Made by a program: the position numbers and the translations under genes. A DNA stretch of 64,000 nt from Asterias amurensis (Eukaryota). The notes under the pieces are model-generated. The model had not been told where the DNA came from. It did no database searches and worked only from the letters and a program-made list of their open reading frames with translations. Shown in pieces: positions 1 to 46,389 of this stretch. The stretch covers positions 14,589,223 through 14,653,222 of the forward strand of contig NC_092655.1 in NCBI RefSeq assembly GCF_032118995.1. The letters run 5' to 3'. How positions within the stretch are numbered: position 1 is the stretch's first letter; the number at the start of each line of letters is the position of its first letter.

Positions 1-529
1 ACCGGCTCTTTTCAGAGCCAACACTCACTCAGAAGAGATATTAAACATGGTTGTAATCGCAAGTTTAGTATTAATATTTATAATTACTTCTTATTCTTCA
101 CACCATGCACAGCTTCGAAAAACCATTCATAAATACCTCAGACAGTTTCGCTATTCCTATTGGTGGAGAGCGCGTCACGTGGGTGTGTATAAACCTTTGT
201 TTATGACCGGTAAAAAGTGTTAATTCATGGGCGTGACACGTGACCTTGCACCTGTTCTTATAAGACAGTTTCTTCATTCCTATTGGTTGAGAGCAACGGC
301 TGAAACAGTTGTGCCACATCACGCGATACGCGCATCGCGCACAGCATTCCCTTACAAGGAGTTGTTTACCCGAGGGCGGCAGAGGGCTTTACCATTTCAT
401 AGCTAGAGGGGTGTTGTGTTGAAAGAAATCATTTAACAATTATAATTTTTGCATTTATTTATTTTTCGACCAAAAAGTGATGATGTTTTTGACCGAAAAG
501 ATATGAACTGGAATCACAGTGTGTTGAAT

Positions 530-650
530 CGGTTTTCAACTAGTGGTTTAAACCCGCCGAGGCCTGGTTCTTGATAATTTACCTCGACTTCGTCTCGGTA
601 AAATTATCAAGAACCAGGCCTTGCAGGGATTAAACCACTAGTTGAAAACC
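530..650. repeat. 120 bp hairpin (inverted repeat) just downstream of SFXN exon 5, in the intron
   Basis: ggttttcaactagtggtttaaacccgccgaggcctggttcttgataatttacc...ggtaaaattatcaagaaccaggccttgcagggattaaaccactagttgaaaacc. Confidence 0.7.
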
Positions 651-717
651 ACTTCACCACACATTGATTCCCTTATTAACAAGAAGAAGAATTTTGAAGT
701 AGAAAGCGTAAACTTAC

Positions 718-931
718 CCATGCCTGGAAGGGCCATGCATATTCTGGAGAAGACGACCTGTCCGATGGCGCTGCGGGCAGCTTTTGTCGACTCCCCTAAG
801 CGGTTACCTTCCTCATCGAACACAGTGATCCCGCTCTGTAACTCCTGTTTCCTCATCATTGGGATGTTGATGCAGTTGGCGGCTGCTACGGCAACAAAGG
901 GAACAAAGCGACCAACAATTGCCGGTGCTTT
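718..931 (-). CDS. SFXN: Sideroflexin coding exon 5. The gene continues beyond the window start.
   Basis: Acceptor gttttcttttccag|AAA; donor ATGG|GTAAGT. Encodes [71 protein letters not shown], matching SFXN1 ...[66 protein letters not shown]. Overlaps ORF-track 638..859. Confidence 0.85.
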
Positions 932-989
932 CTGGAAAAGAAAACATCAGAAATGACAACATGGTCAAAATGTTACTCATTTCTTAATA

Positions 990-1410
990 CCTTTAAAGGG
1001 TATATGTACTTTTTCCTAACAAAAAAACACAATGTCCACAGATTTACGTTAAACTTACACAGTTTGAAGATTATAATAGTAGAAAGCTTCCCTTGAAATT
1101 TTACTTACTGAGGTGCTGTAGTTTTTGAGAAATGGGTAAAAGTAATAATTTTCGTCTCAGTTTTAGCATGTAAAAACGTATTAACCAGTTATGCTATGGT
1201 TTTGGTATAATATCATAACTGGTTAAGGGGATGTTAAAATCGTTTTGTTCTCATGAGACGAAAATGATTTTGTGACTTGTTTTACTCATTTCTCAAAAAC
1301 TACACAACCTTAGTTAGTAATATTTGAAGGGAAGCTTTCCACTATCATTATCTTCAAACCAATTAAGTTTAATGTAAATCTGTGGACATTTTGAAAAAGT
1401 ACCCAAATCC
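990..1410. mobile_element. Foldback/palindromic MITE ('FB-C') copy 1, ~420 bp, in SFXN intron
   Basis: Long imperfect palindrome: the left arm (cctttaaagggtat...tgtccacagatttacgttaaacttacacagtttgaagattataatagtagaaagcttccc...) mirrors the right arm. Second copy at 50358-50797. Confidence 0.7.
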
Positions 1411-1411
1411 T

Positions 1412-1604
1412 TTATAGGCACTGGATACATTTGTCAAAGACAAGTATTCTTGGGGTGTTTCCCAAAGTATGCATCAAATAACAACTCTGTGAAAATTTGG
1501 GCTCAATTGGACATCAAAGTTGCAAGATAATATTGCTTGTGAACAAGTAAGTTTTTATGCTAACAATCATTTTCAGTAACCAATAGTGTCCAGTGCCTTT
1601 AAAG
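1412..1604 (+). mobile_element. MITE-A, internally deleted short copy (lacks the central hairpin)
   Basis: Starts aggcactggatacatttgtcaaagaca and ends taaccaatagtgtccagtgcctttaaag. The 5' and 3' TIR regions are directly joined. Confidence 0.7.
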
Positions 1605-1879
1605 TGGAATTTTGTCTTCGTCACATGAGATTCCAATCTCTATCGATTGTTAATTTGGACTTGCTTAGAGTTAGCGTCTCGAGTGCTTATTTTCTCCCAG
1701 AAAATTGCACCAAGTGTGATTCAATCATGGGGTGGCAGTGGGGTTGACACTCCAAAGGAAATTCAAAAATTGGTATGGTAGTTTGAAAAGTGTGCTATGT
1801 ATAGCAGCTTCTTTATTTCGTTGAAATCTGAGCATATTCCATAGAGCTTCTTTAGAAGGATAAAGTGGCTAGGCTTAAA

Positions 1880-2266
1880 GGAACACGTTGCCTTGGATCG
1901 GACGAGTTGGTCTATTAAAAGCGTTTGAAACCGTTTGTTATGAAATGCATATGGTTAGAAAGATGTTTTAAAAGTAGAATATAATGATCCACACAAGTAT
2001 CACTCGAAATTGCGCGGTTTTCCTTTTACAACGCGAACTATTACGGTCGGCCATTTATGGGAGTCAAAATTTTGACTCCCATAAATGGCCGACCGTGTTA
2101 GTCGACCGGGTAAAAGGAAAACCGTGCAATTTCGAGGCATGTTTGTGTGGATCATTGTATTCTACTTTTACAACATCTTTCTACCCATATGCATTTTATA
2201 ATAAACGGTTAAAAACGCTTGTCAAAGACCAACTCGACCGATCCAAGGCAACGTGTTCCTTTAACG
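1880..2266. mobile_element. ~385 bp near-perfect palindromic element ('PAL-D') in an SFXN intron
   Basis: Arms ggaacacgttgccttggatcggacgagttggtc...ggtcggccatttatgggagtcaaaattttgactcccataaatggccgacc...gaccaactcgaccgatccaaggcaacgtgttcc. Partial copies at 3822-4060 and 36395-36545. Confidence 0.7.
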
Positions 2267-2615
2267 AAATTTTGTTTACCAGAATATGGTTACCAGCCAA
2301 ACTACCATGGCACGTGTACAATTTGTGACTGGCATCCTGCTCATTTCAGCTTAGCAGAAAATCATAAAGTAAGGTTTGCGGTAACACAATGTAATGATTA
2401 TCTCTAAATGAGTTGGGGTGGTTCTGAAAAGAGTTATTGATTTCAACTCATTTAGAGATTATCATTAGATGGTGTTACCGCAAAACCTTTCTTTATGGTA
2501 TTTACACAATAGCAGAAAATTGTTGAGCAATATTTTCTGCTAAAGCAACTCTATGAAATTAGGCCCTGTTCAACTCTGTCAGATTCTTGATAAAGCAGTG
2601 GAGACGATGACTTAC

Positions 2616-2691
2616 TTTGACTACGCTGTTCAGACCCACTGCTGTTGTGACTGCACCTGTTGTTGCTAGTACATACGACAATCCCAACTGA
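2616..2691 (-). CDS. SFXN: Sideroflexin coding exon 4
   Basis: Acceptor ttattcaccttgcag|T; donor AAA|GTAAGT. Encodes (N)QLGLSYVLATTGAVTTAVGLNSVVK, matching SFXN1 NELGTAYVSATTGAVATALGLNALTK. Confidence 0.8.
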
Positions 2692-2739
2692 CTGCAAGGT
2701 GAATAAAAATCATCCATTTTTTACAAGAAGAAAATTCTG

Positions 2740-3047
2740 AAAGTTCCATTTCATCACAACCCCAAGGACGGCCACTTCAAAGTAAGGGGTACACGTCACC
2801 AAGGGCTTATTGCCACCAACTCCAGGGGTGAAACAACGTTATCCCCTTCACAGTCCGTTAAGGATGTAGGCGTGGGTATCTTCCACAGGGAGCTTGGCTG
2901 GTAAAGCAGAATGCTCTACCTTTTCAAGATATCTGAAGAAATTATGACTTGGTGCCTTGCTCAAGGGCACAAGTTATCATGACCTGGATTCGAACTCGCA
3001 CTCTGCTGCTGGAGAGCTTTGGTCAGGTGACCTAGACCACTTGGTCA
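2740..3047 (-). mobile_element. tRNA-derived SINE-like fragment in SFXN intron 3
   Basis: The minus strand reads ctgaccaagtggtctaggtcacctgacc...agagtgcgagttcgaatccaggtc (D-loop-like agtggtctagg and T-loop-like gttcgaatc). It does not fold into a canonical cloverleaf. Shares the core ttgc..aagg.cacaagt...ggattcgaac with the 45110/53922 family. Confidence 0.4.
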
Positions 3048-3183
3048 GAATTTGTTTTCAAATGAAACCAACCTCATAGTAACTGAGCTGTGCTTTAATA
3101 AACACCACTCATGAGCTGGGAAGTCAGAAAATGTGACAATGGTAGTATTAACAAGAAGCTACAAACAACTAAATTTGTCTTAC

Positions 3184-3282
3184 TTGACTGATAAAGGCGA
3201 GGCCCCACTTCTGTTTGTGTAGTTAACGATGGCATTAAAAGATTGATTGATCCACTGCCAAAATAATACTGCTGGTGTTGTT
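3184..3282 (-). CDS. SFXN: Sideroflexin coding exon 3
   Basis: Acceptor tttctttttttcttacag|A; donor CAA|GTAAGA. Encodes (R)[32 protein letters not shown](N), matching SFXN1 [34 protein letters not shown]. Confidence 0.85.
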
Positions 3283-3377
3283 CTGTAAGAAAAAAAGAAA
3301 CAAACATCATAGACTTATCATTTGCCGTTTTTATTTTCGGAACCCTTGTACATTGTAAGTTACAAAGTTCTTTGTTT

Positions 3378-3560
3378 GAAGGTACTGAACATGTTTGTCA
3401 AAGACCAGTATTCTCACTTTGTGTATCCCAACAGATGCGTAAAATAACAAACCTATGAAAGTTTGGGCTTAGTTAGTCATCAAAGTTGCAATGAAACAAT
3501 GAAAGAAAAAACTCCCTTGTTGCACGAAGTAGTGTGCGTCTTCCAGATGCCTTAAAAAGG
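3378..3560 (+). mobile_element. MITE-A fragment (5' half)
   Basis: ggtactgaacatgtttgtcaaagaccagtattctcac...ataacaaacctatgaaagtttgggcttagttagtcatcaaagttgcaatga... Confidence 0.6.
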
Positions 3561-4089
3561 TTTCCCACTTTACTGGGGTGATATGTACACAGTTCTATGC
3601 ATAGTTTGGGCCACTATACATGTTCACAACTCGGGCCAATGTATGGTTTCAAAAAGTTGTTCAACTCGCTGGCAAAGTTTACCAACAGGATGGTTACAAG
3701 ACCTGGAAGATCCTAAGCATCCAGTCAGGTTTCATCCTACATTTTCCAAACAAACCATACCAAAGCTCTATTGTTACAGAACCCAACTTCATAAAGCTGT
3801 TTAGCAGAAAATACTGCTTAAACGAACACGTTGCCTTGGACCGGTCGAGTTGGTCTTTGAAAAGCATTTGTAACACTTTGTTATAAAATGCATATGGTTG
3901 GCAAGATGTTTTCAAAGTAGAATACAATGATCTACACAAATTTGCCTCGAAATTGTGTGGTTTTCCGTTTGCTTTGCGAACTAACACGGTCGGCCATTTA
4001 TGGGAGTCAATGGCCGACCGTGTTAGTCGTTGAGGTAAAAGGAACAACATGGCCGTTTAAGAACTCGTCGCTACCTTTTATTCCCTTAT

Positions 4090-4475
4090 TTAAAGACATT
4101 GGAAACCTTTGGTAATTGTCATAGACTAGTATTCTCACTTGGCGTATCTAAACATATGCATAAAATAACAAACCTTTGAAAATTTGAGCTCAATTGGTCG
4201 TCAAAGATGCGAGAGAATAATGAAAGAAAAAACACCCTTGTCACATTAAGTCGTGCGCTTTCTATGCCTTTAATTCGAGACCTCAGCTGAGGTCTCGTAT
4301 TCATTCAAATATTTGAGTGAGAAATTACCTCTTACTCAAAATCTACATTACTTCAGAGGGAGTCATTTCACACAATGTTTTCTACTATCAACAGCTCTCC
4401 ATCGTTTGTTACCAAGTAAGTTTTTATGCCAACAATTGTTTTGAGTAATTACCAATAGTGTCCAGTGCCTTTAAG
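4090..4475 (+). mobile_element. MITE-A full-length copy (~385 bp)
   Basis: ttaaagacattggaaacctttggtaattgtca...central hairpin ttcgagacctcagctgaggtctcg...gagtaattaccaatagtgtccagtgcctttaa. 28 bp TIRs. Confidence 0.8.
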
Positions 4476-4701
4476 GGACAACATTACTTCTGGGACATGG
4501 CTCTAAACACTTCCAGAACATAATACACCGATCCATTAAGCCAGGCCCAATTGTCATTGACCAATCACAACCACGAAATCTGATCACCATTTGAACCGTT
4601 TGGTGATCTTTGCACTAATGGTGATCGGGTTTCGCGGCTGTGATTGGTCAACTGGTAAGGAGGCGGGGCGTAATGGATCGGTCTATTGGATGATAGATTA
4701 C

Positions 4702-4872
4702 CTGTAGAAAGTGAGCATGCAGCCTGTGATGGTCATATTCATTGGTACCTGGGCCGACATCCTCCCTATTAGTGTCATCTTCTCCTTAGTGTCCGGGTGG
4801 AAGGCAGAGTCGTACCTGTACTTTGCCGTCCAGATCTCTGAGTCCGTCACATTAGGCATTTCTTGACCATTT
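4702..4872 (-). CDS. SFXN: Sideroflexin coding exon 2
   Basis: Acceptor ctctctcaccatcgtccag|A; donor TACAG|GTAATC. Phase-continuous with exon 1 (AA+A=K). Encodes [56 protein letters not shown](R), matching SFXN1 ...[46 protein letters not shown]. Not in ORF track because it is shorter than 60 aa between stops. Confidence 0.85.
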
Positions 4873-4924
4873 CTGGACGATGGTGAGAGAGTGGATTGAT
4901 GAAAGGATAGAGACAGAATGGTTT

Positions 4925-5575
4925 GAATTAGTGCTGGGCGAATAGTGAAATTTTGGTATTCGGATACCGCTGGCCAACTATCCGAAATTAACCGGATATT
5001 AGAATAGTTTTTTCGCCGCTAGAGGGCGCTATTAAAAAAATATATATATATTTATTTTTTTGCCGCTAGAGGGCGCTGTTTGTTTGTGAATGAGATCGTT
5101 TGGGCTGATTGACATTAGCTTTAGACAGTGTCACTCGGTTCATTCATAAAAATAACCAGATCTAATTTAAAGATGGCGATTTGCTTTTTCTTTTGATCAT
5201 GATTGACTCTATGTGAAGCAAAACTTTCGTAATTTTTAAACAAATCACGTCAGAAATGTTATTGTTTTAACTCTTCACGGAGGTGAGCACAGTTAATTAC
5301 TTAATTTATGCTGTTTTATGCTGTCTTAATAGAAATTTCATAAGGATTCAGACAAAACATTCCTATCAGTTGTCGCCCGACGTCCGCGGATATTCGGATA
5401 TTAAAAGAATATCCGGTTGCTTGGTTGTAATTACAGATCTATCCGGTTTATAAATAGGTATTGGCGCCCTAGGCGGATATCCGGTTAAGAAAAAAAAGGC
5501 ATTCGCGGTTACCTATAGGAAAACCTATTCGCCATTAACCGGATATTCGAACAATGCGCCCAGGCCTAGTTTGAA
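4925..5575. repeat. Cluster of at least 7 copies of the short motif AACCGGATATT / AATATCCGGTT, plus direct repeats gccgctagagggcgct flanking an (AT)n tract, in SFXN intron 1
   Basis: 4989 aaccggatatt; 5386 cgcggatattcggatattaaaagaatatccggttgc; 5440 atccggtttata; 5470 ggcggatatccggttaag; 5540 aaccggatattcg. Loosely inverted ends ctgggcgaatag (4934) / ctattcgcc...gcgcccaggcc (5522-5570). Confidence 0.4.
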
Positions 5576-5678
5576 TCAATATGGGATTTGAAGCATTGCA
5601 TGGTAAGGTGTTTGCCATAAGTTCATGCGTATATCTACTTGCTGGATAGATATTCTTCTTTTGGGAACTTGTCTTGTT

Positions 5679-6040
5679 TTAAAGGCAAATGGACACGTTT
5701 GGTAACATTGTCAAAGACCAGTTATCTCACATGGTGTACCCCAACATTATATATGCATAAAAAAAAAAAAGCCTATGAAACTTTGGCTAAGTTGGTCATC
5801 CTAGTTGCAAGAAAATAATGAACGAAAAAAACTTGCACAAAGTTGTTTGCTTTAAGGTAGAAATAAAAGGCTTCAGCTGATGTCTTTCAATATTATAGTG
5901 AGAAAATACCTCTTTCTCAAAAACTATGTTACTTCATAGAGAGTCGTTTCTCACACTGTGTTATACGATGCTAATTACAAGTACGTTTTTATGCTATTAT
6001 ATAACTTTGAGTAATTACCTAATGTGGAGAGTGCCTTTGA
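5679..6040 (+). mobile_element. MITE-A diverged copy in SFXN intron 1
   Basis: ttaaaggcaaatggacacgtttggtaacattgtcaaagaccag...gagtaattacctaatgtggagagtgcctttga. Confidence 0.65.
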
Positions 6041-6797
6041 ACTCAACTACCGCGGAATAGATTTTTCGGAATTCAATAGATTTCTCTACTACCTCGGAGT
6101 AAATTTTCCAATTCGTAAAACTCCTAAGTTCTTAGAACCTAATAAACATAACTTTGAATCCACCTTATAATGCATCTCAGTAAGCAGAGCCATGAAATTC
6201 ATCCCCGGGCTGCTTAACAGCCGAATTTGTGCTTACTGTACGCTTAACATTTCATAGCGCTGCCAACCATGTAAGCACACAAACAGTCTCCTGACGATGA
6301 CTAGAGCAAGCTAGTCGCAACGTTGAGACCAATTTCAGAACTGACTCCGCGGCAGTACAGTTAATTTCGATCCTATAAGCTAAAGTAGTAGTCCAGTCTA
6401 ATTTCTATACCATCCGCCCTGGGAATAGTTAAAAGCAGGACAGTTCTTTTCAGAACTGAGAAGTCTCCCGAACCTCCGATTATCTACTCCACGGCAGTAG
6501 GATAAAGCAAGACAGTTCCCTAAGAACAACTCTACCTGGCAAGTAGATACACACATGGTGTTACCGCAAACCAAATAAACATACGAACAAATAGGCATGC
6601 ACAAAAAAGAATGACGCAACAAATCCATGGAGAACGCGCAAAAAGGCCGCCTAATTTTCTTGCTAACCTGTGAAATACGTTTACACCGTAGCAAATTTTT
6701 CTGCTACAGTAAACACAAATTGCTTACCAGAAGCAGCCCTACGAAATTCGGCCCAGGGGCTTTCCTCAAAATTTAACCTCAACTCCTCATCACTTAC

Positions 6798-6997
6798 TTG
6801 TATGCTTGAACCAATGCCTTGGCCTCATCAAGTTGGCTGTTCATTAGGAATGCATTCAGGGGGTTGGTCACTGTGAAGAAATGTTTAGCTCGTCCCAGGT
6901 AGGTGGATTGGTCCCATTTGGGTTCGTTTAGATTCAGTCTCAGCCGAGTTGCACCTGACGCAATCTCAGACTTCAAAGCTTCATTGGAGGCAGCCAT
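6798..6997 (-). CDS. SFXN: Sideroflexin (SFXN1/3-like) first coding exon. ATG at 6997; 5'UTR and TSS further upstream are undefined.
   Basis: Minus-strand translation MAASNEALKSEIASGATRLRLNLNEPKWDQSTYLGRAKHFFTVTNPLNAFLMNSQLDEAKALVQAY(K) matches the sideroflexin N-terminus (EPRWDQSTFIGRA.HFFTVTDP.N...QLE.A). Kozak-like gcgtgATGG. Donor ACAA|GTAAGT at 6797/6798. Corresponds to ORF-track 6794..7000. Confidence 0.85.
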
Positions 6998-7039
6998 CAC
7001 GCCTGGAATGGAATTGATCAGAATAACAATAATTGGTTC

Positions 7040-7135
7040 TTATAATATAGTAGTTGCGATAACATAACCCTCCTCCCAGCCCAGGCCTGGGCAGCTGTCG
7101 GGAGGAGGGTTAGGTTATCGCAACTAATAATATAG
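7040..7135. repeat. 95 bp hairpin element in the putative SFXN promoter region; related partial copy at 8181-8240
   Basis: aatatagtagttgcgataacataaccctcctcccagc...gctgtcgggaggagggttaggttatcgcaactaataatat. Confidence 0.65.
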
Positions 7136-7244: not shown

Positions 7245-7610
7245 CTTTAAAGGCAGTGGACACTATTGGTAATTAAACAAAAAAATTATTGCCATAAAAC
7301 CTTACTTGGTAACAAGTTCTTATGGGGAGAGGTTGATGGTATAAAACATTGTGAGAAACTGCTCCCTCTGAAGTGCCATAGTTTTCGAGAAAGTAATTTG
7401 CCACGAATTTGATTTGAAAACCTCAGATTTAGAACTTGAGGTCTTGAAATCAACCTAACGCACACAACTTTGTTTGACAACGGTGTTTTTTTCTTTCATT
7501 ATTATCTCGCAACTTCGACGACCGGTTTGTTATGTTATGCATTATATGTTGAGATACACCAACTGTGAAGGCTAGTCTTTGACAATTACCAATAGTGTCC
7601 ACTGCGTTTA
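7245..7610 (-). mobile_element. MITE-A full-length copy, upstream of the SFXN first exon
   Basis: ctttaaaggcagtggacactattggtaatt...ttgacaattaccaatagtgtccactgcgttta. Internal hairpin aacctcagatttagaacttgaggtc. Confidence 0.8.
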
Positions 7611-8382
7611 GGCAAGAATCACGTAACGGTTTACTTTGTAAGAGTAAGGTGCAATGGTGCAATGTAATGCCGATCAGACCAGGAAAACAGGGGTGAGCGC
7701 CCCTTCTCTTTATGATAAGTGCCCTGGGAAAATCAAATGACTTTTGAGAGTGAACTTTTCAAAATATCTCAACGACAAACTTTGCTCATGAAATAGGATT
7801 GCGTTTGATTATCGAGCGGTGCCCTGTCCTTGTGGCCAACCGCCAAGGATTCGAAAATAATTGGCCCCAGTATTTACGGGCAGCTAGGTTAGCTTAATCA
7901 TGTTAGTCTTATATACTCTAACTCTATCTATCTCATCTCCATCTCCATTGGTTCAGTCAGCAAAATATCCTGCCGGATACATCTACGCTAACTCTAAGCT
8001 CAACAAGATTTGAGAAGCATTTTTACTTCAAGCTCAACAAGTGACTACAAGTTCAACTACCAAACCCTTCTGCTTATGCTGGTACTCAATTGCTCAATCG
8101 ATCGTAGGCCTACACCTACAGTAGGCCTACCAGGTCAATCAATATTCAATGCATTGCAATGCCAATGCTGTATACAAATTAGTTGCGATAATCGTAACCC
8201 TCCTCCCGACGGCCGCCAGGCCGGAGGGTTACGAGTCTCGTTCGAGCGTAAACGGTTGATCTGGTCCAACACGTACAATTTGGACAGCTAGTCACCAGAT
8301 TTGCCCCATTTTTACCACTTTTAAAAATCATGACACAAATTCTGAGGGTACTACCTTAATTCGCAATGTCTAATGCAGCCTG

Positions 8383-8925
8383 CCATAATACTCAAAACAC
8401 CATTGAGGAAATATTTCAAAGAAAAATGGACAAAAACTTCACAGGTTCAAATGTCGAACCTGCGTGGGGCGGAGCTTCGGTTGTATGTGTGGGACGTGTG
8501 GTTCAAAAGGTCGTGGCAGTGCGTGGGGTGCGTTGTGTAGCCCGGCAACTGTGCACATATGTGCGGTCCGAGGCTATTCCCACTTGCGGACTCACATCAC
8601 TACACGGGCGGACGGGATGTTATACTTATCAGCAACAACACAGTACACGTGTATGTACATATACATGGTGTACAGTACTGTGGTGCATATCATGTACATG
8701 TACAGTGCATTGTCCTATTTTATATACGGGCCCTGATGACATGTTTTTTTATTTCCTTTTTTTTTCATCTGTATTTTCATCAATTATTTATTCGTTTGTC
8801 CAGTTCCATTTGTAATCTTTTTGGATTTTATATAGTGTCTTTTTTTATTTAAGAAAGTGTTGTGAATACACCATGAATAGACCGATTGCGATACCAATGT
8901 TTACGTATGATCACGTGACCTACAG
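8383..8925 (+). repeat. Arm 1 of a ~550 bp inverted segmental duplication (partner 13085-13646)
   Basis: Near-identical reverse-complement copies (for example ccatgaatagaccgattgcgataccaatgtttacgtatgatcacgtgacctac against gtaggtcacgtgatcatacgtaaacattggtatcgcaatcggtctgttcatgg). The ORFs called in both arms (8366..8815, 13176..13604, 12998..13453) are the same GT-rich low-complexity sequence read twice. Confidence 0.8.
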
Positions 8926-11547
8926 TACCCAAAGAAAAGGACAGATACACAGCAAAGACACGGGAGGATGGGAAGACTTGTACCAATGGACAAGAAATCG
9001 GCCGTATATAGCTTTGTCTAGCTAAAAACGAAACCCTTTTTGTAAAGTTGAATGTTGTAACATAAATTTAAATCACACTTGCTGTTTTATATTTCCAGTA
9101 TTCTATTAAAAAATAGGTTTCTTTTGAGATTATAAACTACGTAAGCTACTGATGTTTGAGCAAGCTCACGCGCCGTAGATTTTGCGCTGTGCACGGCTGA
9201 ATTTGGGCTGTGCCGTGAGCGAAGTTGTCCGACTCTAGATGAAAGCTATCCCTTCTATAAAAAAAAATGAGGATTAAAATAAAGGGATTGGCAGCTTCTT
9301 CGGGAGAATTTTATTGAAAGTATTGGCAGCAAATTCTTTACAATGAGGGTAACACTTGACACCGTGTGAACATTCTCGTGGAATTTCCTAGTTGGGTGGA
9401 AAAATGTGTTTACCCATTACTGTTCAGCCACCGCGGTAAGGTCGCATGTTACAAAGCCCTGAATATTCTTCAGTGATTTTAAGAAATTACACTTTCTTAC
9501 AGGTCACGTGACGTTGCGCGCAATTGGTCTATATTATTGGTTCACTATTTATAATTTAGGCCTATTTTGTAAAGCGCCTTGAGCACAGGGGACTGTGCGC
9601 GAAATAAGTGTCCTACCAGTATTAATTATCTTCGTTGTACAACTAACAACAAGCGGGCAGAATTATTTTTACACCACGGCCAGGGTTTTGGACAACATCG
9701 CGTATTCTGTTTTGCGACAATAATACATTATACGTAAGGCCGGTCGCACATTCCCTTTGGAAGATTATTTCAAAAACTAAGGAGGGAAGGAAAGCCAGAA
9801 TTCCATCTATTTATTCAACGGTGTTATGCACACATTAATATTATTTTTTTAAAGGATAGTAGGGGCCAAGCTCGATATTAAATTCCAACATATCTGTTTA
9901 TTATAACAACCATGACGTTGGACAATAATAAAATGGCGGCTGAGTATCATGCAGAACTTGAGCTGGGACCACAGAGCTGCTTATATAACAGCTGATTTTG
10001 TGCTGTTATAAATTCCGCAATTTCCGTGCTTAATGCACTTAAGTAAATGACGGAACATAAAAATCCCGGAAAGCGTACGAATGGCCGGCCGCCTGATTTT
10101 CTTGCTAAGGGCTGTGAAACACAATTACACCGAGTACTTGAGCAAATTGTTCTGCTACAACATTAGTAGGGGGTATACTAAAACCCTGATTACAACATAA
10201 ACCCTTGTCACACTACATAGCCAATTCCCTGGAAAATAATTGAATTTGTTAAACCCACCGCCACCCCACCATTGGTTACAGGAGTACTATTGAGGAAAAA
10301 TCCCATCCCTGAGCAGGGTTAATTATTTAACAGGAATAACTTATTTCCAGGGAAATACCTATAGTGTGAAAAGGGCTTAAGTAGCACAACATTAAATTCA
10401 GCCAAGGCTGGCAGCTTGTGGGGTATGTTCAACCAACCATGTTCAACAAGGACTGCACACTTGAACGACCTTTTATTGGTGAACCTTTGATCTATTTCCG
10501 CTCAAAACAACAAAAGGTGGATGAATGGACGATACGTGTATCGCAATTCCCATGTCTGTTGTTAAACCTTTAGAGCAGTCATAATCTCTTAATTGTGGAT
10601 CTTTATAGGGGTCCCCAGTCGCCAAGACATAAAAAGCCAACCTATAAAAAACAACCTGTTACTGAGAAAAGACAGCTTAATAATAAAAGATTATTTACTT
10701 ATCAGATGCATTCGGGGTATGGTCATCCTTTTTACTCATCCTTTTTTTATGAGCCCCCATTTTAAAGGATCCGATCCAGCAAAGTGGGTCTAAATCTATA
10801 GCGAAACGCGGCGATTCTTATCACATGAGTTTTACACGTCAACATGGAAGAACGCTGCATAATTTGTAACTGAAAATTTGGCGTTGAACAAGGCAAAACT
10901 AAGAAAAGATGCTCTTTGAATCGCAATTTTGATTCTAAAATTGACGGAGCGGTGACATTCAGTCAACTCATCGATGAAGTTTTTGGTATTCAGTTTGAGC
11001 AAAAAATGGCAGGAAGATGAGGCCGAAAAAAAAAAAAAACTATATGGTTGCTATGGATGCTTGAATTGTGCTCGGAAGATGTTGGATGTCAAGATTAAAA
11101 GGAAACATCTAATGACGGCGGAGGCGAGGGTCATGAGCTTAAAGAGTGAAACAGGTTAGTTCTCATTATGTAAACATGTTATTTAAGTAATAAATAAACG
11201 AGATAGCTATTATTATACATGCCTGGAGTGTTGTTTAATTCCAGCTTTACAATTATTTAATCAAGATCAAGATATAACTGCATTGCATAAATCTGTATCC
11301 TTCGTTATTATTAAAGAACAAAATAGTTCGAAAATACTTGGCTTTTACAGACCAATATTTTGTATGAAAAAGGGTGCACATGCAACGCCAGTAAGTGAAA
11401 ACAACACATGTATAAGGCCACATGAATGTGTAACCACTTGATCATGTTGGAAAAAAAAATAATTTTTCCTAACATATAGTCAACCGTTTAATTTGTGTAA
11501 AATAGTAATTATTAAATTAATATGCTTTTCAATCACCCTCAAACTGT

Positions 11548-11850
11548 TTTAAAGCTGAAAGGTCAACTCCCGGTAATTACTGAAAATTACTGACATAGCA
11601 TAAACAATTTACTTGGTAACTAGCAATGTGGAACTGAAGATTGTATATAAAATTGTGAGAAACGGCTGTCTCTGAAGTAACGTAGCTTGCGAGAAAGAAG
11701 TAATTTTCCACAAAATTGATTTTGAGAACTCATCAGAATTAAATTTTCAGGTCTCGAAATCAAGCGTCTGAAAACAGACAACTTCGTGATACCAGGATGT
11801 TTTTTCTTCCACTATTTATTATATCGTAACTTCGACGACCAAAATGATAA
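11548..11850 (-). mobile_element. MITE-A diverged/truncated copy
   Basis: ttaaagctgaaaggtcaactcccggtaattactg...ggtctcgaaatcaagcgtctgaaaacagacaacttcgtgat...cttcgacgacc. Confidence 0.55.
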
Positions 11851-12058
11851 GACCTTTGAAAATTACAATAATTTACCAGTTTCTTAAACTGTAAAAAGTA
11901 AAATAAAATAAAAAGTTTGTATTTAGTTATAAATGACGGAAGGCAATTTATGTCAACGATTAATATTGTGACTAACCAAAAATCACCACAACAATGAACA
12001 TGAAAACAGACTGTAAAACATTTTTGCTTAAAAAAAGAGCAACTTTAAACAAACTTAC

Positions 12059-12341
12059 TTTTTACATCACCGGATGAGTTTTCCTCCATGAGGGCTACGG
12101 CTGATATTCCCATTTTCCGTAGGGACGCGACTTGATCAGCCATCAAAGCCCTCAAGGGGGAGATGACAAGTGCAACACCACCATCCTTTAAAAGTGGTGG
12201 TATTGCAAAAGTCAAAGTCTTCCCGAAGCCAGTGGGAAGAACTCCCAGAACGTGTTTTTTATTTACGATGTGTTGTACAATTCTCTCCTGTTCGTCTTTT
12301 AATTTCGAAGGCAACAAGGGATACTGTTTTTTTAACTTGTC
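12059..12341 (-). CDS. RecQ-family (superfamily 2) DNA helicase-like exon covering motifs 0, I (Walker A) and Ia. It is either an exon of an unresolved gene or a relic/pseudo-exon.
   Basis: Translation DKLKKQYPLLPSKLKDEQERIVQHIVNKKHVLGVLPTGFGKTLTFAIPPLLKDGGVALVISPLRALMADQVASLRKMGISAVALMEENSSGDVK. Compare RecQ LKKYFG..FRPGQ.EAI......D..V.MPTGGGKSLCYQLPALL..G...VVSPLISLM.DQV..L...GI.A..L. Strong donor AAA|GTAAGT at 12058/12059. In-frame TAG at 12342-12344 immediately upstream, and only weak, purine-rich acceptor candidates. Confidence 0.5.
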
Positions 12342-13084
12342 CTATGCAGCTTCCATTTTTTTTTTCGGTAACCATGCTGCAGTGACTGGAACAATAGCTG
12401 TGATTTCGTTTTGCTACATACTTGCTTGCATATCATTGCATGTAAATTTAGTTGTTTATAGTGGCTCCAAATTGATTAAAACAACCTTAGGTTGGTAGAC
12501 GTTTAACGATATTTTAAATGCCCTAAATAAACAGAGCTTCTACAACGCACTCGATCACAACCCCAATACATGTACCTGGGATGGTCAAACGAAATCACTC
12601 AAGACAAAATAAGTTTGTCAGAGATCAAGCACAGACTTTAAAAATGTCATAAATATACACAGATAAGTTTAAAATACAAGATTATATAATACAATTGTTT
12701 TAGCGGGTCATTTTCATATCTATAGACATAGAGTGAGGAAGCTTTTTTTACAAGTAAAGCGAGCACAGAAACTCAAAGGTCCTTTTTCGAAACCATGGCG
12801 TCGGCTTACGGTTCTTGCCGCAAGTTTACTATTCCTTATTTATTCTTCCGATGTACTTTTTACATTGTATTATTATTACTCACGTGCTCACGGCGCTTTA
12901 CATTTACAAAAGTAGGCCTCGATTAGAAATAAACAAACCGGCAGTTCACAACACTTTCTTTAAAAAATATTACATAAAAAAAGGGGCACTATATAAATTA
13001 CAAAAAGAACAAATTGAACTGGACAAACGAAGCAGAAATATTAATGAAAATACAAATGATAAAAACAATTATGAAATTGAAAGG

Positions 13085-13646
13085 CATGTAGGTCACGTGA
13101 TCATACGTAAACATTGGTATCGCAATCGGTCTGTTCATGGTGTATTCACAACACTTTCTTAAATAAAAAAAGACACTATATAAAATCCAAAAAAGATTGC
13201 AAATGGAACTGGACAAACGAATAAATAATTGATGAAAATACAGATGAAAAAAAAAGGAAATCAAAAGACATGTCATCAGGGCCCGTATATAAAATAGGAC
13301 AATGCACTGTACATGTACATGATATGCACCACAGTACTGTACACCATGTATATGTACACACACGTGTACTGTGTTGTTGCTGATAAGTATAACATCCCGT
13401 CCGCCCGTGTAGTGATGTGAGTCCGCAAGCGGGAATAGCCTCAGACCGCACATATGTGCACAGTTGCCGGGCTACACAAAGCACCCCACGTACTGCCACG
13501 ACCTTTTGAACCACACGTCCCACACATACAGCCGAAGCTCCGCCCCACGCAGGTTTGACATTTAAACCTGTGAATCGCTCCGATTCTGGTAAGTTTTTGT
13601 CCATTTTTCTTCGAAATATTTCCTCAATGGTGTTTTGAGTATTTTG
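13085..13646 (-). repeat. Arm 2 of the inverted segmental duplication. The adjacent segment 13647-13870 is a DIRECT copy of 7857-8180.
   Basis: 13651-13715 (ttggtcccagtatttacgggcagctaggttagcttcatcatgttagtcttatactctaac) matches 7861-7925 in the same orientation. The two duplicated blocks therefore have opposite relative orientations. Confidence 0.8.
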
Positions 13647-16094
13647 AATAATTGGTCCCAGTATTTACGGGCAGCTAGGTTAGCTTCATCATGTTAGTCT
13701 TATACTCTAACGCTCAGCTAAACAAGTTACTACAAGTTGAACTACCAAACGCTTCTGCTTATGCTGGTACTCATCTGCTCAATCGATCGTAGGCCTACGA
13801 CAGTAGGCCTACCCACGTCAATCAATTCAATGCACAATGCCAATGCTGTACAGTGTATGTATACAAAATGGTATACTAAAACTAGTCATATTTATTCACC
13901 CTATTCACAGTGTAGAACGTAGCTGTAACAAGCATAATTCAACTAATAAATAGACCAAGTTTAACAGAATCATACTCATCTTCGACGAACCTTAATAATG
14001 TTTCATTACCTGGTTAAAAGCCGGTAATTAATGTAGAATCTTTAGCAGTTGCAGTTTACGTCTTTCCACCCGGTGTTCATGTGACACTGGCAGGCGCCCT
14101 CTAGTGTCTACGTGTGGTGCATTTTCTTTACCGATGATTGGTCAATTTGGGGGTGTGTCCGTCGGGGGCACGTCGCGACCCCCCCCCCCCCCCCCCGGAC
14201 AGCCCGCATTTCTGTTAGCCGCTCATTTTGTGGGAAAGTTTGGGGTGTTTTGGGCCACAGAACTCTGGGTGAATAAGCTAGCAATTCACGGCGGCTGGCT
14301 AAACCAGTTCATTTATGTGTTTCGTGCGCAAGCGAAGTTTATCAGGTAAATATATTTAACTTTAGAATCACCCTGTAATTAATATTGACAGACTATGGGA
14401 ACTTAATGTTGAAAACTTTTTTTGTGACGTTTGTGTATAATCAAGATAAACTCTCGCTAGAATTCCAATCATTGTTGGTCCTCGAGTATAAAATGAGGAG
14501 GGGGGGGGGGCGTGATTAAGCTAGGTTGTTCTTGTTTTGTCTACCACCAGAAACACCACCCCCACGGATGGAGCAGTACTATACAAAAGTGCAAATTCCC
14601 AATAGGAAATACACAATCTGAAAACCGTTACTGCGGTAACGTTTCTCATTTTCAAAATTGTGGGGTATGAAAAATATATTTGAACAGAACCACATTACTT
14701 TGAAGTAAAAATGTTTCTCAAAATGATTTGCGGATACTATCTAAAGCTGGTATAGGCTTCGATGCAATAGTTTGTATTGCCAAAACTTCAACAGGTTTGT
14801 CAGTTTACGCACATGTATGGATTACATACATCGCATCTGGTATATCATTTATATTTATTAATATTAATATTTATCTGGTTTATGTTTATTTAAAAGTGCA
14901 GTTTTCAAAAGAGTCTTAAGTTTCTCAAATGTATGCTTAGCAGAATCCATCCAAATTCCCGAGTCACTACATGTTATGCACCATGTGCCGCGACTGGTAT
15001 CCTAGGTCTGCAATTAGCAGGGGGTAATTATAAGCAATACTTTCTGCTAAAGCAGCTATATGAAGTAAAGCCAATTAGACCCTATTGCATAGACTACCAT
15101 TGCTGAGGGAGGAGGGGGGGGGGGTCGATTTAGGATTGTGACACACAGAGCTCACTTGGGCAGTGGGACCTTCAAATTAAAGGTACAGTACACAAAGTTT
15201 AAAAAGAAAACAAAAATCGTATTTATTACTTGACAAAGATTAAGGATAACAATTAATAAACTTTACTAAAACTGCCTGTGACAAAATGTCTGCGGACATA
15301 CAATACAATTACAGGCAATAATCAAATTTGGTCATTATGGTTTTTAAACTGGCTTTAATATTTTTCTTTTAAATATCTATTGTACACTGTTCTTATTAAT
15401 TTGGTTTGGCAGAGTAGGCCTACATGGTAGTCTGAAATACATGCTGATAACAGGTAAGGGGAAAATGACAATGTTAAAGTGTTTTTGCTAACTATAAACC
15501 ACAGGTAATTTTAAACACTTCCCACATCATTTGAATCAGTTACTTTTTTAAAGATGATACAATTATACAGGTACAACTAAAAAGACACAGAGCTCATTTG
15601 GGCAGTGGGACCTTCACAGGTATACAAAATTCAACAACAAAGACATGACAAGAGCTAAACGACGATGATCACTCACCCTCTCGTGGTGACGCCATGCACC
15701 TAGTGCCAGCCAAGTGACCTACTCGACAAGCAGGGCACTTGGGACTGACCCGTGAGTGAGCCCCGGGAATGACGTCAAAGCTATTCGAACTTGCACCGGG
15801 GGAAGACCGGGGTCGACCCAGGGAAGCTAATCGAACGCACACTGATCGCTTGTTGCATGTATAAGGCAATACAAAATATCAGTCATCGCAGTACGTAGAC
15901 TCGCTACACTGCTTTGAGCAGGTTCTTCCTAAGAATTGCTTGTGTTTGCTGACATTATGGTGACTATTGTACAACGAACGTTTCACAATGTGTTATTCTT
16001 CGGCCCAGTCTAATCCAGCGTGTAAGGACAAAAACTTGCTACTTAGCATAATACTGCTGAGCCAAATGCCAGTGAAAATTGCCAGTGAAAATTC

Positions 16095-28260: not shown

Positions 28261-28710
28261 GCATGGATCCATCGCTGTCAAGTCCAGAATCATACCATGC
28301 TGCTATGTGTTTTATGTAAACATCTTGTCGAGTGCACTCAGCGTGCGGAGAGAAGAGAGTTGCCGCGTTTAGTCACCAAGAAATATGTCTCTGTTCTAAC
28401 TGTTTTCGTTCGCACGTTTATATGATTTCCTGCTTGATCAAACACGACTGTTCAGTTTAACTCGGTCTGGAAGATTTGCAGTGGCGGAATTTATGAGGTT
28501 ATTTGCGAAAGTGAGTTGTTTTGCTCTTTACCAACTCCCTGGAAACGGTGTGTCTCGAAATGCACAGAAGACGACTTACGTTAAGAACAGAAACTTTGGT
28601 TATGAAGAATTAAAAGTCTGGTGAGTCAACAAGGAAGTTTGAAGTCTCAAACAATATTTTGCAATCATTTTGCAAATCATTTAAAAGGAAAGTTTGGTAA
28701 CTTTGGCAAA

Positions 28711-29736
28711 ATGGATTGCATGGATACAGCCTCGGATAGTTTCTCCACCAATTGTTCTTTGGAGAATTGCACAGAAGAGGAGACTACGAAGTCGGTGACA
28801 CAAATTCGAGATTGGGTGGCGGGAATTTTTCTTCTAATCGTCTGCATAACGGGTCTGATTGGCAACAGCATGGTCATCTTTGTGGTGCTACGCTACGCCA
28901 AAATGAAAACCGTCACCAATTTGTACATCTTGAATCTGGCCATAGCCGATGACCTGTTCATGATCGCCCTTGTGTTTTTGTCTATTGCTACCCTGGCGGG
29001 TAACAATTGGATATTCGGCCCCGTTCTGTGCCATGTGGTCTACGCAATTGACGGTCTCAACCAGTTTACCAGCGTGTTTTGCCTGACCGCCATGAGCATG
29101 GATCGCTACGTCGCCGTATGCCACGCTCGAAGGGTCCGCGGGTATCGGACTCTTCGCCTGGCAATCTGCGTGAACTTCGGCGTATGGTTCCTAGCCCTTG
29201 CCGCTGCCAGCCCGATGAATATAGTGACACGGTACACCGTTTACAACGGTACACCAGTGTGTTATTTCAATTTCGAGTCTGTATTCGGTAAAGACGCCGT
29301 CGTCATAACTCAGAAACTGTTCATGATTTACACGACTTTGATGGGACTTGTGATTCCTTTAGTCATCATTTCCGTGTGCTATTCGAGCATTGTGGTGCGC
29401 CTCAAGAAATTAGGAACCCGCACGGGAAAGATGAAGAAATCTCGAAAGGTAAACCGTGTAGTGTTTTTTGTAGTGCTCGCCTTCTTCATGTGTTGGTGGC
29501 CGTTTTATGTATGGCGAACTATAGTGGTGTTTGTACCGTGCCTTGCGCAACAGTGGTTCAATGGCCTCGTACTTGACTTTACAATGTGTTTGGGTTACCT
29601 AAACAGCTGTGCAAATCCACTCCTCTACGGATTCCTTAGCGGGAACTTCAAAAAGAGTTTCCGTAAAGTGTGGAACTGTACACAGGAAACGGAGATACAA
29701 AACGGTCGACGCCGTGCTCCGGCCCAGCCTATGTAA
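28711..29736 (+). CDS. Intronless class-A (rhodopsin-like) GPCR of the somatostatin / allatostatin-C receptor type, 341 aa from the first ATG.
   Basis: Single uninterrupted ORF with seven predicted hydrophobic TM segments. N-terminal N-glycosylation sites (NCS, NCT). TM2 NLYILNLAIADDLFM (SSTR: NIYILNLAIADELFM). DRY motif MSMDRYVAVCH. TM6 FMCWWPFY. TM7/helix 8 NSCANPLLYGFLSGNFKKSF (SSTR: [20 protein letters not shown]). The ORF-track start at 28621 is a GTG; the first in-frame ATG is 28711. Stop TAA at 29734-29736. Confidence 0.85.
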   Translation: MDCMDTASDSFSTNCSLENCTEEETTKSVTQIRDWVAGIFLLIVCITGLIGNSMVIFVVLRYAKMKTVTNLYILNLAIADDLFMIALVFLSIATLAGNNWIFGPVLCHVVYAIDGLNQFTSVFCLTAMSMDRYVAVCHARRVRGYRTLRLAICVNFGVWFLALAAASPMNIVTRYTVYNGTPVCYFNFESVFGKDAVVITQKLFMIYTTLMGLVIPLVIISVCYSSIVVRLKKLGTRTGKMKKSRKVNRVVFFVVLAFFMCWWPFYVWRTIVVFVPCLAQQWFNGLVLDFTMCLGYLNSCANPLLYGFLSGNFKKSFRKVWNCTQETEIQNGRRRAPAQPM

Positions 29737-30168: not shown

Positions 30169-30556
30169 TTAAAGGCAGTGGACACTATTGGTAATTGTCA
30201 AAGACTAGCCTTCACAGTTGGTGTATCTCAACATATGCATAAAATAACAAACCTGTGCAAATTTGAGCTCAATCGGACATCGAACTTGCGAGATAATAAT
30301 GAAAGAAAAAAAACACCTATGTCACACGAAGTTGTGTGCGTTTAGATGGTTGATTTCGAGACCTCAAGTTCTAAATCTGAGGTCTTGAAATCAAGTTCGT
30401 GGAAAATTACTTCTTTCTCGAAAACTATGGCACTTCAGAGGGAGCCGTTTCTCACAATGTTTTATACCACCAACCTCTCCCCATTACTTGTCACCAAGAA
30501 AGGTTGTATGCCAATAATTATTTTGAGTAATTACCAATTATGTCCACTGCCTTTAA
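30169..30556 (+). mobile_element. MITE-A full-length copy ~430 bp downstream of the GPCR stop
   Basis: ttaaaggcagtggacactattggtaattgtcaaagactagccttcacagttggtgtatctcaacatatgcataaaataacaaacctgtg...gagtaattaccaattatgtccactgcctttaa. Confidence 0.8.
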
Positions 30557-45606: not shown

Positions 45607-46004
45607 ACGAGTTGGCCTTTATACTATTGGTAATTACTCAAAATAATTGTCAGCATCAAAACTTATTCGGTAACGAGCAATGGAGAGCCGTCGATATTAT
45701 AAAACATTGCGAGAACGGCCATCTCTGAAGTAACGTAGTTTTTGAGAAAGTAAATAATTTATCACTGAAATATTTGATTTGAATTCGAGACCTCAGCTGG
45801 GGTCTCGAATTCAAAGGCATCCGATGAAAGCACACAATTTGTGCGCCAAGGGTGTTTTTTCCATTCATTATTCTCTCACAACTTCTGTTACGACAAATTG
45901 AGTTATAAATTTCCAGGGTTTGTTATTTTATGCATATATATGTTGAGAACACAAAGTGAGAAGCCTGGTCTTTTACTATTACCAAAGGTGTCCAGTGTCT
46001 TTAA
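45607..46004 (-). mobile_element. MITE-A copy, head-to-head with the next copy and sharing its terminal TTAA
   Basis: ggcctttatactattggtaattactcaaaataattgtcagc...ttactattaccaaaggtgtccagtgtctTTAA. Confidence 0.75.
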
Positions 46005-46389
46005 AGGCAGTGGACACTATTGGTAGTTGTCAAAGACTAGTCTTCACAGTTGGTGTATCTCAACATATATGCATAAAACAATTAACCTGTGAAAATTTGA
46101 GCTCAATCGGTCATCAAACTTGCGAGATAATAATGAAAGAAAAATAACCCTTGCAACACGAAGTTGTGTGCGTTTAGATGGTTGATTTCGAGACCTCAAG
46201 TTCTAAACTTGTGGTCTCGAAATCAAATTCGTGGAAAATTACTTCTTTCTCGAAAACTATGGCACTTCAGAGGGAGCCGTTTCTCACAATGTTTTATACC
46301 ATCAACCTCTCCCCATTAACTCGTCACCAAGAAAGGTTTTATGCTAATAATTATTTTGAGTAATTACCAATAGTGTCCACTGCCTTTAA
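46001..46389 (+). mobile_element. MITE-A full-length copy, head-to-head with the previous copy
   Basis: TTAAaggcagtggacactattggtagttgtcaaagactagtcttcacagttgg...gatttcgagacctcaagttctaaacttgtggtctcgaaatc...gagtaattaccaatagtgtccactgcctttaa. Confidence 0.8.

Follow-up and report, generated by a model that had tools for sequence, protein, structure and literature searches.

A DNA transposon with 745 bp terminal inverted repeats bracketed by two copies of its target in Asterias amurensis

Background

How does a locus acquire two adjacent repeat units, one recurring in the same orientation and the other inverted? Such a layout, A-B ... B'-A, was predicted in Asterias amurensis, in a 64 kb stretch of DNA hereafter called the window. 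A segmental duplication with inversion of B, a template-switch or fork-stalling replication error and an assembly error were all envisaged as its source. We show here that the two A copies enclose a DNA transposon of the cut-and-paste type (8180-13646), one of multiple copies, whose terminal inverted repeats measure ~745 bp, and that B and B' belong to its two inverted ends. Copies of one ~223 bp target stretch (A) bracket this element on both sides.

Results

Repeat geometry

The repeats were confirmed as real and far beyond chance, at essentially the predicted coordinates (Table 1). Blastn and the repeat search also bore out the layout, with a direct A pair and an inverted B/B' pair. Segments 7856-7925 and 8031-8172 of A1 matched 13647-13714 and 13716-13850 of A2 at 93% and 88% identity, respectively, and the 105 bp in between (7926-8030) are extra DNA private to A1. 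B paired with the reverse complement of B' (blastn E=0), their global alignment comprising 527 matches, 14 substitutions, one indel of 18 bp and one of 1 bp. Both units occur twice and have no further copy in the window (blastn).

Table 1. Features of the locus (window coordinates)
Feature	Coordinates	Strand	Evidence or remarks
Sideroflexin-1-like gene, first coding exon	6794..7000	-	tblastn; 96% identical to A. rubens sideroflexin-1-like
Palindromic 76 bp MITE (7051-7126) with target duplications	7042..7135	+	Termini TAGTTGCGATAA...TTATCGCAACTA as in the element
A1	7856..8179	+	Left-hand resident target copy; collinear with the single A. rubens A (L001 8913-8693) and the left flank
Left terminal inverted repeat, outer 204 bp (leader; a "spacer" in the original prediction)	8180..8383	+	Starts with terminus TAGTTGCGATAA; L009, L012 and L013 begin here
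B, inner 541 bp of the left terminal inverted repeat	8384..8924	+	Inverted match to 13087-13646
Element interior, 4,162 bp	8925..13086	.	Decayed; six-frame Pfam scans
Partial SINE-like repeat (abundant, ~390 bp, interspersed), within the element	11572..11843	+	blastn, 20 other window loci
RecQ-family helicase remnant, N-terminal only (motif I region, exon-1-like)	12045..12317	-	Pfam DEAD E=3.5e-13
Diverged (73%) direct copy of 13145-13273, right repeat's inner edge	12945..13089	+	blastn; also in L009, L011
B', right terminal inverted repeat without its outer 204 bp	13087..13646	-	L009 and L011 keep the missing leader
A2	13647..13869	+	Second target copy, adjoining the truncated element end; contiguous with the right flank common to A. 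rubens

Comparison with A. rubens

A GPCR at 100% identity assigns the window to A. amurensis. Comparison with a related species, as the original prediction had proposed, was informative. The orthologous locus of the sister species A. rubens (L001) carries a single A joined directly to the left and right flanks and lacks the insert, its only matches to 8180-13646 being the SINE-like repeat and one stretch of 73 bp. This arrangement points to a layout of target copy, 5,467 bp insert and target copy in A. amurensis. Only A is resident at the locus.

Non-coding orthologous divergence between the two species amounts to 4-8%, and A1 differs from the A. rubens A at 9 of 203 sites. This is ordinary species divergence, which makes A1 the resident copy. 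Private substitutions numbered three in A1 (203 aligned sites) and 12 in A2 (nine of them transversions, accompanied by several small indels). At all 12 of the latter, A. rubens agrees with A1 and not with A2, to within ~55 bp of the right edge. Divergence between A1 and A2 reached 7.4%, against 2.6% between B and B' (Fisher p=0.005). That the inverted arms differ by less than the two species do is consistent with an insertion postdating the split.

The left edge of A (7856) lies within 1 bp of ATAATTGG, the insertion site of an unrelated 112 bp MITE in A. rubens. This coincidence is treated as chance or as a hotspot in the model favoured below.

Copies on metagenome contigs

A phmmer search with an ORF derived from B picked up metagenome contigs whose ORFs share 52-89% identity with it; a match to P0268 (Closterium) was discarded as low-complexity noise. 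Five independent contigs (L009-L013) matched the element ends at 93.6-97.5% identity. Three of them (L009, L012 and L013) start exactly at TAGTTGCGATAA, corresponding to window position 8180, next to three unrelated flanks, as expected of a cut-and-paste transposon. Contigs of the left-end type (L010, L012 and L013) run on into 8925-9262, and those of the right-end type (L009 and L011) still possess the leader of 204 bp and so carry the same 745 bp in inverted orientation. This leader is contiguous with B in every other copy compared. The shared start next to differing flanks, together with the leader on right-end copies, identifies 8180 as the terminus of a multi-copy transposon. The complete left terminal inverted repeat thus consists of leader and B (8180-8924, 745 bp).

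The element therefore has terminal inverted repeats at both ends. The left one is intact and abuts the target; the right one is truncated, since its counterparts in L009 and L011 carry the 204 bp that it lacks. The original prediction had regarded B as a locally duplicated unit, a view superseded by its occurrence as a terminal inverted repeat of one multi-copy element with unrelated flanks elsewhere. The partial internal tandem duplication reported at 12998-13075 was roughly right (see Table 1 for the extent found), and the arrangement is a trait of the right end of this element family. The hairpin described beside copy 1 is also real (8186-8240; DNA fold -18.8 kcal/mol, z = -4.3); what had been taken for a separate 60 bp element is the transposon's own terminus, and the hairpin is absent from copy 2 because the 204 bp are missing at that end. 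An Rfam scan of the window returned zero families.

Other delimitations were tried. Taking 8384-13646 (B to B') alone as the element, with the 204 bp as filler or as a captured miniature element, was rejected, since other copies carry the leader at left and right ends alike. The 204 bp stretch was also examined for a right terminus of its own; the candidate at 8346-8372 was weak, with 21 of 2000 shuffles scoring equally well, and was dropped. Scans of metagenome DNA yielded zero matches for the terminus pattern and two for a 20-mer from B, the one on L003 being a chance match.

Element interior

Six-frame Pfam scans of the interior detected no domain besides one helicase fragment. The original prediction had placed a RecQ exon between the arms. 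A RecQ-like ORF is indeed present, but it is a lone N-terminal helicase remnant covering positions 3-72 of the 167 in the Pfam DEAD profile, and no Helicase_C part occurs anywhere in the window. Its best protein relatives share just 45-50% identity with it. Since no match exceeded 50% and Asterias proteomes were in the database, this piece is no recent capture of an annotated Asterias gene. Two homologue loci (L005 and L006) contain RecQ-like genes of the usual multi-exon kind, and long inverted repeats were not obvious there. The potential of the arms as a fragile site, also raised in the original prediction, is probably weak given the 4.2 kb spacer between the inverted repeats.

A miniature relative

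The MITE at 7051-7126 has a terminus matching that of the leader at 36 of 38 nt, and a perfect target-site duplication of 9 bp, ATAATATAG, lies on either side of it. Both A. rubens and a third Asterias-like contig (L002) have an empty site at this position. A MITE with the same terminus, a perfect duplication and empty sites points to activity of the family in the amurensis lineage. The short, fixed-length target duplication typical of cut-and-paste transposons, with its empty site, was thus found at this miniature relative, whereas the 5.5 kb copy is bracketed by 223 bp instead of 9 bp. In A. amurensis, the element lies ~1.2 kb upstream of the sideroflexin exon.

Discussion

Origin of the structure

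The structure probably results from a normal transposon insertion, followed by interrupted gap repair of a broken right end, and not from an inversion. The element would first have entered at the right edge of A, directly behind TATACAAAT, and duplicated 9 bp of target as the MITE at 7051-7126 did; the presumed canonical duplication is TATACAAAT itself, the last 9 bp of A1 (8171-8179). A double-strand break would later have occurred at the right end, plausibly through a transposase cut in an attempted excision, and the right element end would have lost 204 bp to resection. Strand invasion by the chromosomal end may have followed, into a template where A directly adjoins the right flank; possible templates are the homologous chromosome's empty allele and, by way of the 9 bp duplication, A1. 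After copying of ~214 nt of A, the strand would have dissociated and been end-joined to the resected element, the outcome being A, intact end, element, truncated end and A. These repair steps are reconstructed from the end product alone.

A repair error is still the best explanation for the duplication of A. One observation counts against the simplest form of this scenario, namely that an A2 copied from A1 after the insertion should be more similar to it than 7.4%. Set against the 2.6% separating B and B', this value requires that the template was a divergent allele, that synthesis was mutagenic or that gene conversion homogenised B and B'.

A one-step aberrant integration appears rather unlikely. 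Opposite strands would have been cut 223 nt apart, a linear element truncated beforehand or a one-ended transposition intermediate joined in and the long overhangs filled in, giving in effect an abnormally long target-site duplication. Both A copies abut the insert exactly, as this process would leave them, and fill-in duplications are known from staggered breaks (PMC8355091); one edge of A was also used by a different transposon in A. rubens, suggestive of a hotspot for breakage or integration. Yet the family's normal target duplication is 9 bp and the right junction lies at a truncated end, unusable by a transposase. Moreover, fill-in copies are identical at birth, whereas A2 is far more diverged than the inverted repeats. 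It is improbable, too, that the structure is ancestral to both species and that the insert and one A disappeared from A. rubens through recombination between the direct repeats, as in solo-LTR formation. Direct repeats of 223 bp separated by 5.5 kb are a good deletion substrate, A1 and A2 are at least as far apart as the two species (4-8%), and the long A2 branch would fit a duplication predating the split. The 2.6% between B and B' argues against such an age, however, as do the agreement of A. rubens with A1 at every A2-private substitution and the amurensis-specific MITE at 7051, which places activity of the family after the split.

An assembly artefact, whether a mis-join or a falsely duplicated haplotig, is very unlikely: copies that differ by 2.6-7.4% and by indels do not look like a haplotype that was collapsed or duplicated, synteny with A. 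rubens holds across the outer junctions, and the junction between A1 and 8180 falls exactly at a verified transposon terminus. Exact-ORF look-ups for a second, independent A. amurensis sequence of the internal junctions found none on record. Local duplication of A-B with inversion of B, or a single replication template switch on local sequence, would account for the A-B ... B'-A geometry, but is extremely improbable because B, B' and the DNA between them are missing from the one-A locus of A. rubens and B is elsewhere the end of a mobile element with unrelated flanks.

Considering A itself as an LTR, with a solo LTR in A. rubens, was rejected: A starts with AATAATT and ends with CAAAT instead of TG...CA, reverse transcriptase, integrase and gag domains are all missing (Pfam), and neither the window nor L001 contains further copies of A.

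Significance

Insertion of a transposon and repair of one damaged end would turn a puzzling rearrangement into a simple reading. The work delimits a DNA transposon family in Asterias by its ends, its ~745 bp inverted repeats, its 9 bp target duplication and a miniature derivative. It also yields a dated presence/absence character that separates A. amurensis from A. rubens and lies ~1.2 kb upstream of a sideroflexin gene. Its value lies in annotation and in a possible marker; as an ordinary transposon scar, the locus leaves current understanding unchallenged. There is a slim chance that A2, with four times the private substitutions of A1, is a low-fidelity germline break-repair scar, or that the 223 bp bracket is a one-step target duplication left by the two ends of a long-TIR transposon striking the target 223 bp apart. 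If either were true, an animal genome would here preserve a rare relic of aberrant transposition chemistry.

Comparison with known systems

As to superfamily, AcademH is only a lead, short of demonstrated membership. Many Academ families display 5'-TAG...CTA-3' termini, AcademH elements have a 9-10 bp target duplication (5' pyrimidine, 3' purine), and some AcademH families carry terminal inverted repeats of 526-575 bp (Kojima 2020 and its supplement, PMC7165386). The Asterias family likewise shows TAG...CTA termini and, at the MITE, a 9 bp duplication of matching length; its element contains RecQ-related helicase sequence and has very long inverted repeats, although 745 bp exceeds any reported. 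The resemblance of the helicase fragment to the AcademHP-1_SKow helicase is weak (36% over 36 aa) and no closer than that to generic RecQ-like proteins (45-50%). Using AcademHP-1_SKow, a single reference from a machine-read PDF supplement, tblastx searches of the insert and the window for an Academ-type DDE transposase were negative, in a copy that is decayed.

Mutator-like elements with long inverted repeats, including Pack-MULEs, combine a 9-11 bp target duplication and inverted repeats of hundreds of bp with a carried gene fragment. The Asterias element resembles them in its long inverted repeats, in the gene fragment between these and in the 9 bp duplication of its family. It differs in that its helicase piece was not recently captured from an annotated Asterias gene and in that a MULE transposase was not detected.

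Regarding the duplication of A, staggered DNA breaks that are filled in can produce tandem duplications (Schimmel et al. 2021, PMC8355091). The shared trait would be direct duplication of DNA between two offset strand breaks, but those duplications measure tens of bp and come without a 5.5 kb insert.

Interrupted or abortive gap repair, in which synthesis-dependent strand annealing gives way to end joining after cleavage at a transposon end, is familiar from P elements, Ac/Ds and Tc1. The Asterias case departs from these in being fixed and natural, in being read from sequence alone and in the unexpected divergence of the new copy. As in those cases, one element end is intact while the other is truncated, DNA copied from the flank lies beside the damaged end, and the junction has at most a few ambiguous bases.

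Repeat organization and comparison with A. rubens

Repeat finding and blastn recovered every repeat of the original prediction, and blastn found no further copies of A or B in the 64 kb window. The inverted arms B and B' (blastn E=0) displayed 527 matches, 14 substitutions and two indels of 18 bp and 1 bp in a global alignment. The "partial tandem duplication" described earlier corresponded to a direct copy located by blastn. A1 carried 105 private bp, missing from A2 and from A. rubens, in which the neighbouring motifs ACTCTAA and GCTCAACAAG were re-used about 2.5 times; this looks like a product of slippage or template switching.

Coordinates of features in the window and, where marked L001, in the A. 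rubens sideroflexin locus
Feature	Position	Characteristics
Sideroflexin-1-like 5' exons	1-7000	minus strand; first coding exon 6794-7000
Sideroflexin intron 1 stretch	6645-6708	L001 10353-10290
Miniature element	7051-7126	76 bp, palindromic, perfect hairpin; termini TAGTTGCGATAA...TTATCGCAACTA; DNA fold -32.5 kcal/mol
Its target duplications	7042-7050, 7127-7135	ATAATATAG, 9 bp, perfect
SINE-like repeat (examples)	7245-7610, 30170-30556, 46002-46389	~390 bp
A1	7856-8179	direct copy of target DNA
A1 private insertion	7926-8030	105 bp
Insert	8180-13646	5,467 bp
B	8384-8924	inverted arm
73 bp stretch	10087-10159	inside element
Helicase match	12045-12317	minus strand
Internal direct copies	12945-13089, 13145-13273	73% identical
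B'	13087-13646	reverse complement of B
A2	13647-13869	direct copy of target DNA
Poly-C run	14179-14196	18 bp, right flank
Poly-G runs	14500-14510, 15114-15124	
Receptor gene	28621-29736	single exon
A in A. rubens	L001 8913-8693	single copy
A. rubens miniature element	L001 9024-8913	112 bp, palindromic, GGAAAAGTTTCCGTATGGCGCC...

The A. rubens sideroflexin locus (L001, including 10 kb upstream) was collinear with the window on either side of the insert. Its single A was directly joined to homologues of both flanks (<=7855 and >=13870). L001 matched the insert in a single 73 bp stretch and in a SINE-like repeat of high abundance, and nowhere else. The layout is therefore left flank, A1, insert, A2 and right flank, with B and B' near opposite ends of the insert.

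By a coincidence, A has its left edge, at 7856, no more than 1 bp from the 8 bp site ATAATTGG, the target of an unrelated miniature element specific to A. rubens (target duplication AGAATTGG / ATAATTGG); this position may be prone to insertion or breakage. A. rubens had a different sequence in place of the poly-C run. The 73 bp stretch was about 78% identical to a portion of sideroflexin intron 1 conserved in the two Asterias species, and may derive from a small repeat or reflect a shared regulatory motif. The SINE-like repeat was present at 21 loci, which together cover about 6.5 kb, or 10%, of the window, and it recurred frequently in both the A. rubens locus and the Asterias-like contig L002.

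The insert as a mobile element

The decisive evidence on the identity of the insert came from an ORF read from B, which matched three short ORFs on metagenome contigs in phmmer searches (52-89% identical). The five contigs retrieved after these matches (L009-L013) were 93.6-97.5% identical to the insert ends. Three of them (L009, L012 and L013) started exactly at TAGTTGCGATAA, next to three different, unrelated flanks; a mobile element present in multiple copies therefore has its true terminus at position 8180. L010, L012 and L013 were of left-end type, running on into 8925-9262, while the right-end type (L009 and L011, running on into 13086-12988) kept the 204 bp "spacer". Since this leader is present in right-end contigs, the terminal inverted repeats measure about 745 bp (8180-8924, leader plus B), and the right repeat of the window lacks its outer 204 bp. 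The hairpin reported only at the first copy is genuine; it is not an additional element, being the tip of the transposon, lost from the other end by truncation. The proposed duplication followed by inversion of B was not borne out, B and B' being ends of a multi-copy element that is absent from the A. rubens locus.

The left end of the insert (TAGTTGCGATAATCGTAACCC...) matched the terminus of the miniature element at 36/38 nt. The miniature element is situated 50 bp from the region of the sideroflexin start codon, on its upstream side, and the corresponding site was empty in A. rubens and in L002.

Public "metagenome" assemblies contained sea-star nuclear DNA: L009-L013 (ENA ERZ2348xxxx/ERZ2349xxxx, COLL22-1 samples), carrying several copies of this transposon, and L002 (ENA ERZ1764477), which covers the sideroflexin promoter and exon 1, is about 94-96% identical to each of the two Asterias species and apparently comes from a third taxon.

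Given the position of sideroflexin exon 1, the A1-A2 structure is located upstream of that gene, at a distance of 0.9-6.9 kb. The window also contained an intact somatostatin/allatostatin-C-type receptor gene, 100% identical to an annotated A. amurensis somatostatin-receptor-like protein (Patiria and Acanthaster orthologues, 76%).

Timing and proposed history

Orthologous non-coding sequences of A. amurensis and A. rubens differed by 4-8% substitutions at this locus, against 2.6% between B and B' (5 and 8 private changes, respectively, in 529 columns aligned with other copies). Provided that the arms were alike when the insertion took place, the element arrived after the species split, in keeping with the lack of the insert in A. 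rubens. A less likely alternative to this timing is that the structure is ancestral and that A. rubens lost it through recombination between A1 and A2. Over 203 aligned sites of A, private substitutions numbered 3 in A1, 12 in A2 and 6 in A. rubens. A1 differed from the A. rubens copy by an ordinary 4.4% and is thus the resident copy. A2 was unexpectedly divergent (A1 versus A2 7.4%, against 2.6% for the arms; Fisher p=0.005), with several small indels and 9 transversions among its 12 private substitutions. The transversion share differed from that of the pooled changes in A1, the A. rubens copy and B/B' (p=0.002), but not from the locus-wide background (123 transitions and 122 transversions; p=0.14).

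The A1/8180 junction is canonical; the B'/A2 junction joins a truncated end, and a transposase could therefore not have produced it. In its simplest form, the history would comprise four steps. The element would first have inserted in the normal way at the right edge of A, after TATACAAAT, and generated a 9 bp duplication. Its right end would subsequently have broken, plausibly when an excision was aborted, and would then have lost 204 bp. During repair, the chromosomal end may have copied about 214 nt of A adjoining the right flank, from an empty homologous allele or from A1 via the 9 bp duplication; a divergent allelic template, if used, would explain the excess differences of A2. Finally, this A-bearing end would have been attached by end joining to what remained of the element. 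A less likely origin of the two A copies is integration in a single step, at a break with a 223 nt stagger, and an assembly error is unlikely. The structure is a lineage-specific insertion of a DNA transposon with long inverted repeats, damaged at one end, whose target duplication was probably made by repair. It is helpful for annotation and neatly illustrates a type of event that is already known, and its general interest is low.

Coding content and possible relation to AcademH

The sole Pfam match in the six frames of 8925-13086 was to the N-terminal part of a DEAD/RecQ-type helicase (E=3.5e-13, profile positions 3-72 of 167). Its best protein relatives were only 45-50% identical and included no Asterias protein, though Asterias proteomes were in the searched database; no Helicase_C portion was found in the window. 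The "RecQ exon" of the original prediction is therefore a lone N-terminal remnant carried by the element, and does not belong to a conserved host gene at this locus. Compared with AcademHP-1_SKow, an AcademH transposon, the fragment aligned weakly with the helicase (36% over 36 aa), and no transposase-like remnant was detectable in the insert or window. Neither comparison supported membership of AcademH, which is offered as a lead rather than an assignment: like AcademH elements (PMC7165386), the insert and its relatives display TAG...CTA termini and a 9 bp target duplication, and the insert further combines very long inverted repeats with an internal RecQ-like helicase piece.
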